Positions 10,414 through 12,642 of a stretch of 46,456 nucleotides of DNA are shown here, one piece after another. The stretch lies in IMG/VR virus record IMGVR_UViG_2563366990_000004. The stretch is one strand, 5' to 3'. Both the position numbers and the translations under genes were made by a program. The DNA is from a virus. Taxonomy: Duplodnaviria > Heunggongvirae > Uroviricota > Caudoviricetes. The stretch's first letter is position 1. Each line of letters starts with the position of its first letter. The notes beneath the pieces were generated by a model, which worked only from the letters and a program-made list of their open reading frames with translations, ran no database searches and had not been told where the DNA came from.

Positions 10414-10715
10414 GGGTGAGAATTTATATCGCCGGTCCGATGACGGGATATGAAAATTTCAACCGTGAGGCGTTTCACAAGGCGGAAGAAGCACTGAAAC
10501 AGGAAGGGCATACCGTATTAAATCCCGCAGTACTTCCGGACGGGCTGACTCAGCCACATTACATGGATATTTGTATGGCAATGATTCGTTGTGTGGATGC
10601 GGTTTATATGCTGAAAGGCTGGCAGCGGTCGGCAGGCGCTAAGGCAGAACTGGCACTGGCGGAGAAACTGGGGCATGCAGTTATTTTCCAGGAGGCAACC
10701 AGTGAGAAAAATTAA
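10410..10715 (+). CDS. DUF4406-like protein (nucleoside 2-deoxyribosyltransferase-like fold)
   Basis: 101 aa; N-terminal IYIAGPMTG…FN…F…AEE…G…VLNP pattern typical of DUF4406. Confidence 0.55.
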   Translation: MRVRIYIAGPMTGYENFNREAFHKAEEALKQEGHTVLNPAVLPDGLTQPHYMDICMAMIRCVDAVYMLKGWQRSAGAKAELALAEKLGHAVIFQEATSEKN

Positions 10716-11304
10716 TTATCAGACGCTACGTGAGATAGCAAAACTGGCAACCCAGGGCGAATGGGTCGCATTCATTTCGCCGGGCACTGATACATATGCG
10801 GTGCATACGCCGGGGGATGAACGTTGCGGAGACATTATCAAATGGCCTGGCTTTGATGACCAGAAAAATGCAGAGAACAACGCAGAATTTATTGCAGCTT
10901 TCAACCCTGAAGTAGTACAGGCACTGCTGGATGAACGGGAAGCCCAAAGCAAACGTATTGCCGAGCTGGAAGCTAATCTTGTGGCGCTGGCTGCGGAGAA
11001 TGCACTTGCTCGTAAAGCAGTTCAGGCATTCTGCGATGTTGTTGGCGACAACACCGAGGTTATTTGCGAGGAGGTTGGGAGAGATGGCGTTCTGGTTATT
11101 TTGGAGGCCATGAAGGCAACAGGAAATATGCCAGCCACCGATGCTTTCCTGGCTGATGTACGAGCGGAGGTGTTTAACGACCTTTGCGCGGCGTTTGTCA
11201 GGCACGCAAAAGTTGCAGGACTGGATGATGCCGATACCGTAACGTTTAAGGAAGCGACAGAAGCATTGCTGCATTGTGCAGAACAACTTCGCGCACCTGA
11301 ATAA
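10702..11304 (+). CDS. ead/Ea22-like accessory protein with coiled-coil
   Basis: GTG start 10702 preceded by GGAGGCAACCA; N-terminus VRKINYQTLREIAK is the same module as the start of the 12298 gene. Confidence 0.5.
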   Translation: MRKINYQTLREIAKLATQGEWVAFISPGTDTYAVHTPGDERCGDIIKWPGFDDQKNAENNAEFIAAFNPEVVQALLDEREAQSKRIAELEANLVALAAENALARKAVQAFCDVVGDNTEVICEEVGRDGVLVILEAMKATGNMPATDAFLADVRAEVFNDLCAAFVRHAKVAGLDDADTVTFKEATEALLHCAEQLRAPE

Positions 11305-11399
11305 TTAAATTTAGCACTGTAAATAAAATTTAATCCTTAACCGGAGGGATTCCTGCACCCTCAGAACATCAGGAGACCGCCCGGCAGGGCGGTAGTGAA

Positions 11400-11582
11400 A
11401 TGCGAAAGTTCAAAATAATTATTGAAACGGGAATAGCCGGTGGAGATTTTGAGGATGTATTCGAAGTGGACGATGACGCAACACCTGATGAAATTCATGA
11501 CGAAGCAAAAGAAATTTTCTTTAACTACTGCAATTACTCATATCACGAAATAAAAGACGAAGAGGAAGAACAAAATGGCTGA
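11400..11582 (+). CDS. Small acidic hypothetical protein (60 aa)
   Basis: ORF after an AT-rich intergenic region; highly acidic (D/E-rich) product. Confidence 0.4.
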   Translation: MRKFKIIIETGIAGGDFEDVFEVDDDATPDEIHDEAKEIFFNYCNYSYHEIKDEEEEQNG

Positions 11583-11760
11583 TTTTGGTTCAACTAAATA
11601 TAACGCCAGTTTTGAAGAATGGCATGAACTGTTAATGGACTATGCAGAGTTACGCGGTGGAAGTGCCGCCGATGCTGAAGCATGGCGTGATGACTATGAA
11701 GCAGGAAAAACTCCGGTTGAAGCTTATTGTGATGAGTGGGGTGAGGACGATGAAGATTAA
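11575..11760 (+). CDS. Small acidic hypothetical protein (61 aa)
   Basis: Overlaps the previous ORF by 8 nt; product ends …CDEWGEDDED. Confidence 0.4.
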   Translation: MADFGSTKYNASFEEWHELLMDYAELRGGSAADAEAWRDDYEAGKTPVEAYCDEWGEDDED

Positions 11761-11869
11761 CTATCAGGCGATGGTGCAGGCCAGGCGATTCGATACCGGC
11801 TCGTGTTCAGAGTCATGTGAAATCTGGGGTGAACAATTGGAATTGAAATTCGAAGAGGTGGTGGCATGA
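11750..11869 (+). CDS. Very small hypothetical protein (39 aa, MKINYQ… start)
   Basis: ATG 11750 with GAGG RBS; shares the KINYQ N-terminal motif with the ead-like genes. Confidence 0.3.
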   Translation: MKINYQAMVQARRFDTGSCSESCEIWGEQLELKFEEVVA

Positions 11870-12069
11870 CAATCGTAAAAACCCATACCGGCATCGTGAT
11901 CACCAAAGACGGTCCGCAGGTAAAAAAACTGCACCAGACGGAGCGGATGTGGGTCGTCGACAAAAACGAGTTTTACCACAAAGAAACCGGACGCCGCCAC
12001 TTTGCAGAAAATACGCGCCGCCGACTACTGATCGACACCATCAAGCCTGTCGAGGTGAAGCATGTTTAA
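11866..12069 (+). CDS. Hypothetical protein (67 aa)
   Basis: Overlapping start/stop with neighbours in a co-directional array. Confidence 0.45.
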   Translation: MTIVKTHTGIVITKDGPQVKKLHQTERMWVVDKNEFYHKETGRRHFAENTRRRLLIDTIKPVEVKHV

Positions 12070-12301
12070 ACAGAACGAAAAATCTATCGCTCAAATTGCT
12101 GAGTATATCCCGCGTGCGTGCCGGGGTATGCAGTTGCAGGAAGCCAAAGCGCGCCTGGAGAAAAAAATTGCGCTCTATATCAATGACGGCTGTGATGCTG
12201 CCGTTCTTAACGCGGCGTTCGCACCAGCTCTTAACAGTCATACGCGGGAGTCTTTTTTTTCGTGCATCGCAGCGCAGATCCACAAAGGAGGCAACCAGTG
12301 A
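12062..12301 (+). CDS. Hypothetical protein (79 aa)
   Basis: Co-directional, overlapping stop/start with flanking ORFs. Confidence 0.45.
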   Translation: MFKQNEKSIAQIAEYIPRACRGMQLQEAKARLEKKIALYINDGCDAAVLNAAFAPALNSHTRESFFSCIAAQIHKGGNQ

Positions 12302-12642
12302 GCAAGATTGACTATCAGGCATTGCGTGAGGCAGCACAAAACTATCGGTCGATGCTGGCGTGGTATCAGGAGAAACCAGACAGTCCAAACGCTGAGCAGG
12401 ATTGTGATGCAGCTTTGTCTGCGTTTAAGCGAGAAATCCGTCATCGTGAAGTGGATATTATCGCTGATTTGCTGGATGAACTGGAGGAAGCAAAACAGCG
12501 TATCGACGAGCAGGAGTCCCGCACAGTGAAGTTACCAGAACCATTCAAGCTGGCTAAATCATCAAGTGGATTAACGTACTACTACGCTGATGAGGTCAAT
12601 GCAGCACTGACTGCTGCTGGTATTCGCATAGAAGGAGAGTGA
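12298..12642 (+). CDS. ead/Ea22-like accessory protein (short form)
   Basis: GTG 12298 preceded by AAGGAGGCAACCA, nearly identical to the RBS/start of the 10702 gene; N-terminus VSKIDYQALREAAQ. Confidence 0.5.
   Translation: MSKIDYQALREAAQNYRSMLAWYQEKPDSPNAEQDCDAALSAFKREIRHREVDIIADLLDELEEAKQRIDEQESRTVKLPEPFKLAKSSSGLTYYYADEVNAALTAAGIRIEGE

Follow-up and report, generated by a model that had tools for sequence, protein, structure and literature searches.

The repeated gene start in the accessory gene array

We analyzed a 46,456-nt stretch of DNA from a virus of the class Caudoviricetes (IMG/VR record IMGVR_UViG_2563366990_000004; "the window" below means the whole of this stretch), in which two Ead/Ea22-like genes with GTG starts at 10702 and 12298 share a gene start that we call the junction. 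An original prediction, made from the sequence of the window, had noted an almost identical ribosome-binding site (RBS), start codon and first codons at the two genes and had proposed a conserved linker for modular exchange. Both genes belong to an array that sits between the replication genes and Q in the RefSeq annotation of NZ_AP045167.1 (locus L179), an E. coli prophage 98.8% identical to the window and annotated with the Prokaryotic Genome Annotation Pipeline (PGAP)/RefSeq. In that prophage PGAP starts two "ead/Ea22-like family proteins" at the GTGs matching window positions 10702 and 12298. The features that concern the two full copies of the junction are as follows:

10009–13788, + strand: array of small genes with overlapping stops and starts (sole gap 11305–11399)
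10410–10715, + strand: DUF4406 gene (Pfam DUF4406, E = 3.4e-37, residues 4–93 only)
10690–10743, + strand: J1, full junction (Shine-Dalgarno (SD) sequence AGGAGG at 10690–10695, 6-nt spacer, GTG at 10702, head codons VRKINYQTLREIAK)
10702–11304, + strand: Ead-1, Ead/Ea22-like protein of 200 amino acids (Pfam PF13935, 94.9 bits, E = 8.5e-27, profile 2–114)
12062–12301, + strand: gene of 79 amino acids (phrog_1344), with its tail AAQIHKGGNQ-stop taken from junction frame 0
12269–12339, + strand: J4, full junction (tail codons AAQIHKGGNQ-stop, SD, GTG at 12298, head VSKIDYQALREAAQ)
12298–12642, + strand: Ead-2, short Ead/Ea22-like protein of 114 amino acids (Pfam PF13935, 33.6 bits, E = 6.9e-8)

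An independent repeat search compared the two 5' regions, as the original prediction had suggested: a direct repeat of 54 nt lies at 10690–10743 and 12286–12339, with 80% identity (43/54 positions). It opens with the exact 17-mer AGGAGGCAACCAGTGAG, comprising the SD AGGAGG, a 6-nt spacer, GTG and AG, which has just two matches in the window even with three mismatches allowed. For an exact 17-mer pair by itself ~0.06 would be expected in 46 kb, and the 24 matches at the 34 further positions have P ~3e-8, confirming that the repeat is real and exceeds chance. The near-identical gene starts were therefore borne out. The N-termini of the two full-copy genes read VRKINYQTLREIA and VSKIDYQALREAA, and the 17-nt core of this head, AAGATTRACTATCAGGC, occurs three times, at 10708, 11753 (11753–11769) and 12304.

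Judged by its sequence, the junction is a composite of ~80 bp. Sub-module A runs from the last codons of the upstream gene through a strong SD, GGAGG, and the CAACCA spacer to a GTG start sharing bases with the stop of that gene (GTGA), whilst sub-module B, the head, consists of the first 13–16 Ead codons, S-K/E-I-D/N-Y-Q-x-L-R-E-A-A-E-K-A. At J4 the TGA of the 79-amino-acid gene overlaps the GTG of Ead-2 (GTGA, 12298–12301). At J1 the final 8 codons of the DUF4406 gene, QEATSEKN-stop, come from the junction in the +1 frame, giving a 14-nt overlap with the Ead-1 start (10702–10715); the QEATSE tail is also found on other upstream genes in the surveyed contigs. A third overlap, of 11 nt, lies at 11750–11760, and the SD falls within the upstream open reading frame (ORF). 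The genes are tightly packed, in an operon that is probably coupled in translation.

The Ead genes and lambda Ea22

The heads of Ead-1 and Ead-2 align to PF13935 (Ead_Ea22; gathering threshold 27 bits) from profile positions 1–2 onward, and the two proteins are 26% identical over 114 columns (BLASTP). A second patch of 46 nt, at 10925–10970 and 12470–12515, is common to both genes with 72% identity, and encodes LLDE..RI.E.E, the start of a coiled coil, at 10925–10970. Ead-1 and Ead-2 are, on this evidence of likeness, diverged paralogs of one family, Ead_Ea22. The idea that the repeat heads different accessory genes within the window consequently fell away, both full copies standing before paralogs; the accompanying statement that the rest of the proteins differ was right about the divergent bodies but overlooked the common family and the second patch. 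The N-terminus of Ead-1 also matches 18 PHROGs, all of unknown function.

The head extends to phage lambda, whose ea22 starts GTGAGCGAAATTAAC / GTGAGCGAAATTAACTCTCAGGCACTGCGTGAAGCGGCAGAG, giving VSEINSQALREAAEQA, and the junction head is the N-terminus of lambda Ea22 itself. Ead-1 is 32% identical to lambda Ea22 over 111 amino acids, whilst the similarity of Ead-2 is confined to the head (9/13), the coiled-coil patch and the tail AGIRI(E/K)GE. Neither protein aligns to lambda residues ~105–165, the lambda-type C-terminal domain, and a PDB sequence search with both returned no significant chain, only noise, so that no sequence link was obtained to the solved lambda Ea22 C-terminal domain. The proteins end in IRIEGE (Ead-2), IRIKGE (lambda) and QLRAPE (Ead-1).

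The 3' end of Ead-2 carries a putative second conserved junction type, at the opposite end of the Ead genes, with ~27/30 positions identical to the lambda ea22 3' end (lambda 29847–29876) when counted by eye:

12616–12646, + strand: Ead-2 3' junction (AGIRIEGE-stop, SD AAGGAG, ATG of the next gene)

In the Shiga toxin (Stx) phage ArgO145 (L001, NC_049918.1) RefSeq starts the ead/Ea22-like gene 2974–4008 at a point 63 nt before the conserved GTG (3037), with an overlap into the preceding gene; this start is probably mis-called.

The junction lies between unrelated flanks

The exact 16-mer GGAGGCAACCAGTGAG was present in at least 120 IMG/VR contigs, with 132 sites among the matches listed. The Ead head S(K/E)I(D/N)YQxLRExAE.A follows at 109 of these sites and 12 other N-termini follow at the remaining 23. 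When ten of these 12 other proteins were tested against Pfam none was Ead_Ea22; three matched DUF7446, DUF7739 and PAPS_reduct, and seven had no family. A survey for the same junction before other cargo, as had been suggested, thus found at least ten genes outside Ead_Ea22 headed by the exact 16-mer. Nor is the likeness restricted to a generic RBS, as lambda ea22 and more than 100 other contigs keep the head codons.

The listed sites combine 29 upstream clusters (200 nt) with at least 17 downstream clusters in 51 ways, where the downstream figure understates diversity because single-linkage clustering merged 84 Ead bodies into one cluster, probably via the coiled-coil patches. The combinations are reticulate: a gene of 74 amino acids stands after upstream clusters U2, U3 and U4, U1 precedes six downstream clusters, and the 79-amino-acid gene of the window (U0) has at least five different downstream sequences after it in other contigs. 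The 7021 pairs of distinct listed sites divide into 6380 sharing neither flank, 291 sharing the left only, 296 sharing the right only and 54 sharing both. In a position profile, conservation forms an island between about −40 and +40 relative to the start, outside which the flanks are at background; the consensus of the island is GC.GC.CAGCTTCGCAAAGGAGGCAACCAGTGAGCAAGATTGACTATCAGGCACTGCGTGAGGCGGCAGAAAAAGCAAC.

Upstream ORFs run through the 16-mer in two frames, ending ...(A)AQLRKGGNQ-stop or ...QEATSE(xx)-stop, and Ead uses the third; the longest-open-frame assignment misplaced some contexts (the phrog_1344 gene appeared as SQRRS.KEATSE), so these tail classes were used qualitatively. This two-frame reading indicates that the 16-mer is conserved at the nucleotide level and not through upstream protein sequence. 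Within the head, the identity of Ala codons between unrelated-flank pairs was 0.89, 0.74, 0.58 and 0.68 against a codon-usage expectation of ~0.3, the scored codons being fixed by neither search pattern. This synonymous excess extends to about codon 12 and is at the expectation level at codons 13–15.

In 97/97 of the 16-mer-ascertained IMG/VR head contexts the Ile/Val codon of the head was ATT (95) or GTT (2), with GAY or AAY next. The combination ATT/GTT plus GAY/AAY always yields a +1-frame TGA or TAA, which ends the upstream ORFs read as QEATSE.., and in the window it stands at 10711–10716, 11756–11761 and 12307–12312. The pattern may reflect selection for an adapter or plain common descent.

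A search with the head pattern and no fixed RBS gave 120 loci among the matches listed, 56 of them new, and about half of the heads share a contig with the exact 16-mer.

Breakpoints and filled and empty sites

The ends of high-scoring segment pairs (HSPs; the count took in those with a length of 150 nt or more and an identity of 85% or more) between the window and the fetched loci cluster at 10680–10740, 11280, 11760 and 12320–12339, the last bin holding 19 ends. The same positions bound the matches that megablast gave to E. coli genomes and to phages in GenBank, with phage matches ending at 12329–12336. Similarity boundaries are spread across ~80 bp and do not fall at one point. A clean recent divergence is seen between the Stx phages ArgO145 and Lyz12581Vzw: an identity of 99.4% over 3076 nt ends at head codon 13, and only 24 nt of tail and the coiled-coil patch are shared beyond it.

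In six filled/empty pairs, one contig has a segment of 241–256 bp between two junction copies (2 mismatches at most), and another contig has a single junction whose 100-nt flanks on either side match with 90% identity or more. In the pair L035 and L072, whose flanks show 97% identity, the segment is a DUF7446-like gene of 84 amino acids, and there is 1 mismatch in the left copy. A gene of 87 amino acids is likewise bounded by junction copies in L018.

Of the pairs with unrelated flanks, 44% were identical over an uninterrupted 23 nt or more and 18% over 31 nt or more. The minimal pairing length is given as 23–27 nt for Red-beta and 31–34 nt for RecA (PMC3945230).

Rearrangement scars within the array

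Between the two full copies lie partial ones, together with the genes and fragments around them:

11275–11296, + strand: J2, tail-only half-junction at the Ead-1 3' end (BLAST HSPs end at 11292 and start at 11297)
11297–11399, + strand: recurrent non-coding module after J2, at the sole gap of the array
11575–11760, + strand: gene of 61 amino acids upstream of J3
11750–11770, + strand: J3, head-only remnant (ATG AAG ATT AAC TAT CAG GCG = MKINYQA)
11762–11869, + strand: 3' fragment of a phosphoadenosine phosphosulfate (PAPS) reductase gene, in frame with the J3 head (PGAP pseudogene fragment in L179)

The ORF 11750–11869 had been noted as a third small ORF with the start MKINYQ. The head core is indeed present, but only 7 residues are head, and residues 5–39 are the C-terminus of PAPS reductase. 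The ORF has no Pfam match, placing it outside the Ead/Ea22-like family. Intact PAPS reductase is found in ArgO145 and Lyz12581Vzw, where it ends in SNLYQAMVLAKRFDTGSCSESCEIWGDQLELKFEEVVA and a stop. The crossover lies within TATCAGGCG (11762–11770), a 9-mer that Ead heads have in common with intact PAPS-reductase alleles, and joins the Ead head to the last 33 PAPS-reductase codons, keeping the ATGA overlap with the gene at 11866. L079 has the same fusion, and in L179 PGAP calls its equivalent an N-terminally truncated pseudogene. By this comparison the ORF is a deletion or fusion scar and not a cargo gene, and joining at a 9-bp microhomology points to illegitimate, not homologous, recombination. 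In phage ArgO145 an intact Ead gene comes after the 61-amino-acid gene.

At J2 the tail reads ...CAEQLR and then APE-stop in place of KGGNQ-stop, SD and GTG, whereas L122 has the same Ead body with an intact ...CAEQLRKGGNQ-stop/GTGAG. The module that follows is 97–98% identical in L017, L045, L070, L108 and L079, behind a different left flank. Five related contigs have the DUF4406 gene, the junction and a 16-codon head-only ORF running into this module, with the Ead body absent. Parts of the module occur three times in ArgO145, and by eye it has two GC-rich hairpins, ggaggg...ccctc and gaccgccc...gggcggt. A scan of 10300–13200 found no promoter or terminator consensus in the module, and its count of promoter and terminator sites over the whole interval was not above that of shuffles.

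Proposed exchange at the junction and alternative explanations

The sequence conservation, the reticulate flanks, the positions of the breakpoints and the filled/empty polymorphisms are all observed. Together they lead us to read the repeat, with a probability of roughly 0.7, as the conserved Ead/Ea22 accessory-gene junction of lambdoid phages, acting as a short "boundary sequence" for exchange. Under this interpretation 16–30 or more identical nucleotides between unrelated flanks would let Red-beta, RecT (Rad52-type) or RecA cross over at the junction, and such a crossover would swap, insert or delete the flanking genes, whilst the SD, the GTG and the stop overlap would keep a newly joined downstream gene translated. 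We infer from the comparative pattern both the acting recombinase and the selection for exchangeability, as well as the translational coupling. The proposal of a linker for modular exchange thus held at the level of the population, where the cluster combinations, the pairs sharing a single flank, the filled and empty sites and the breakpoints all bear on it. Exchange between J1 and J4 themselves is not what these comparisons would indicate.

Several points weigh against exchange at the junction, and most of them favor the alternative that conservation is functional and vertical, with the head kept for the N-terminal helix of Ead, the SD and GTG kept for expression, and the joints made illegitimately and selected at gene borders, as in the Hendrix model. 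The head lies within the Pfam domain PF13935, so its conservation is at least partly at the protein level, and the RBS may serve expression; neither needs selection for recombination. The J3 fusion, the sole reconstructable rearrangement in the window, used a 9-bp microhomology, and this is genuine support for the alternative. Other RBSs precede the head in 47 of 169 unique head contexts, each being the 3' end of a particular upstream gene, which means that sub-modules A and B are separable and their linkage is not obligatory. The longest exact run between J1 and J4 is 17 nt, shorter than the reported minimum for pairing by Red-beta or RecA, and recombination between these two copies should therefore be inefficient. 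The surveyed sites were picked by the exact 16-mer or the head DNA pattern, which inflates the apparent conservation at those positions, and the support for a crossover at the junction is comparative throughout.

Functional conservation nevertheless leaves much of the evidence unaccounted for. The 16-mer is invariant although upstream genes read it in two frames, and it also precedes genes outside Ead_Ea22; synonymous sites in the head are conserved far above the codon-usage prediction; direct repeats of the junction bound short segments for which matching empty sites exist; and breakpoints fall 35–40 nt into the gene, inside the head, and not at the gene border. We accordingly regard this alternative as unlikely, though it is the strongest of the rivals.

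A bolder version of the exchange model would make the junction a selected "universal adapter" for an array of accessory-gene cassettes, a homologous-recombination analogue of the integron. Both other frames would be closed within 8 codons, by the TGA in GTGA and by the T-GA/T-AA at ATT/GTT-GAY/AAY, translation would restart in the third frame, and at least 23 nt of identity would be offered to phage recombinases. If this were true, a cassette placed between two copies would be expressed at once, in a system present in ~40% of E. coli genomes. We consider it speculative and improbable.

A cis-acting RNA or DNA regulatory element of co-regulated accessory genes, such as a translational operator, a small RNA target or a protein-binding site, would suit nucleotide conservation beyond coding need and a position at the translation-initiation region. 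It is very improbable, given that no junction copy had an Rfam match (9000–14500, E up to 1, where only sok at 13916–14088 was found), that the folding energies of four junction contexts were like those of shuffles (z −0.48 to +0.75), and that regulation leaves the reticulate flanks unexplained. Scarcely credible is a dedicated site-specific cassette system, integron-like or homing-like, recognizing the 16-mer. The 16-mer does stand on both sides of short segments and the filled/empty sites are precise, but Pfam, PHROGs and PADLOC recognized no recombinase or nuclease in the array (DUFs, unknowns or no match), there is no attC-like structure (folding z ~0), and the similarity boundaries extend over ~80 bp. 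Lastly, a chance likeness of two generic ribosome-binding sites, for which one could cite the ~0.06 expectation of the exact pair in the 46-kb window, is refuted by the matches at the 34 further positions, by the same register to the start codon, and by the more than 100 Ead genes elsewhere headed by the same sequence.

Neighboring features and distribution

PADLOC had zero matches to the nine array proteins searched. Inside the 79-amino-acid gene an 8-T run at 12253–12260 (codons S-F-F-S), with a similar run in the copies of relatives, is a potential slippage site. Beyond the array lies a hok/sok-type type I toxin-antitoxin locus at 13916–14241, with Rfam sok at 13916–14088 (110.8 bits) and a Hok-like ORF of 51 amino acids at 14086–14241; in the related prophage (L179) a hokD gene is annotated downstream of the Ead array, at a distance of a few hundred bases. 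On the minus strand at 14763–15388, two overlapping ORFs resemble, by eye, a ParE/RelE-type toxin and a ribbon-helix-helix antitoxin.

A query of 73 nt across J4 had at least a partial match in 2224 of 5426 complete E. coli genomes (41%), and a match covering at least 80% of it in 888 of them. The number of junction matches per genome had a median of 1 place and a maximum of 11, and every listed match was annotated ead/Ea22-like. In one-genome-per-species contigs a 19-mer scan gave 8 matches, three with the Ead head (two Escherichia, one "Sutterella"); the five others were without it, two of them being the same Bryobacter-type gene, and their total is in keeping with an estimate of ~4 chance matches.

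On plasmids there were 552 junction matches, for example NZ_CP148475.1 42435–42503 and NZ_CP124510.1 70620–70687 (about 95–105 kb), so that the Ead family and the junction are not confined to integrated lambdoid prophages; these plasmids may be phage-plasmids. The "Sutterella" locus (L185, CAJKAP010000027.1) is a 1.4-kb contig binned as that genus with a typical E. coli phage junction and Ead head, and PP818812.1, labeled "Actinobacillus phage vB_Apl-pPE4", has a 92.8% match to the window. To judge from their sequences, these look like misbinning, host mis-assignment or else recent transfer, and L185 is probably misbinned.

Comparison with known systems

The mosaic build of Ea22, in which the N-terminal segment and coiled coil are shared and the C-terminal domain varies, has been published (PMC10834534), as have the conserved amino-terminal portion, dissimilar C-termini and common K/RGE terminal motif of the family (PMC7093339). 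We did not find the junction-level properties described: the literature searched has no description of sub-module A shared by genes outside Ead_Ea22, the two-frame reading, the direct-repeat cassette behavior or the 97/97 frame-1 stop, and PMC9836094 has nothing on ea22 or breakpoints.

Lambda ea22 and the Ead family (PF13935/IPR025153) share with the genes of the window the gene start, GTGAGC followed by (G/A)A(A/G)ATT(A/G)AC..., and the resulting VS(E/K)I(N/D).QALREAA. The location differs: ours lie beyond the replication genes in the early-right (nin-like) region, and that of lambda is in the exo-xis region. The lambda ea22 RBS (GAGAGGTTCGAA GTG) is also unlike that of the window junction, and the bodies of Ead-1 and Ead-2 have only ~26–32% identity to each other or to lambda Ea22.

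As an enzymatic mechanism, the closest parallel is relaxed homologous recombination by Rad52-like phage recombinases (PMC3945230), whose Red-beta and RecA pairing lengths are exceeded by 44% and 18% of the unrelated-flank pairs, respectively. The exchanges in that work were measured on homologies of hundreds of bp, whereas the island here is ~80 bp.

What the modular theory of lambdoid phage evolution calls "boundary" or "linker" sequences is credited in PMC3029335 to Susskind and Botstein (1978) and Clark et al. (2001; HK620). As described there they are, like the junction, short conserved stretches at gene borders between non-homologous modules and proposed sites of homologous recombination; unlike them as described there, the junction reaches ~40 nt into the downstream ORF and doubles as a stop/start overlap. 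Two features of a boundary sequence were found, the junction being conserved between non-homologous flanks (6380 of 7021 pairs share neither) and the recombinant joints mapping inside it by comparison. The classical "boundary sequence" model is thus well supported here, and the junction is not a new kind of element.

The junction is in addition a practical handle with which to find and delimit poorly characterized accessory genes in Stx and other lambdoid prophages, and it flags annotation problems such as mis-called starts upstream and pseudogene scars. The debate on phage mosaicism is said to set homologous exchange at short conserved linkers, the view of Botstein and Clark, against random illegitimate joining followed by selection, that of Hendrix. 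For the linker view the junction offers a clear and abundant test case, and the window displays both routes side by side, a linker-type junction and, as a counter-example, a 9-bp microhomology scar.

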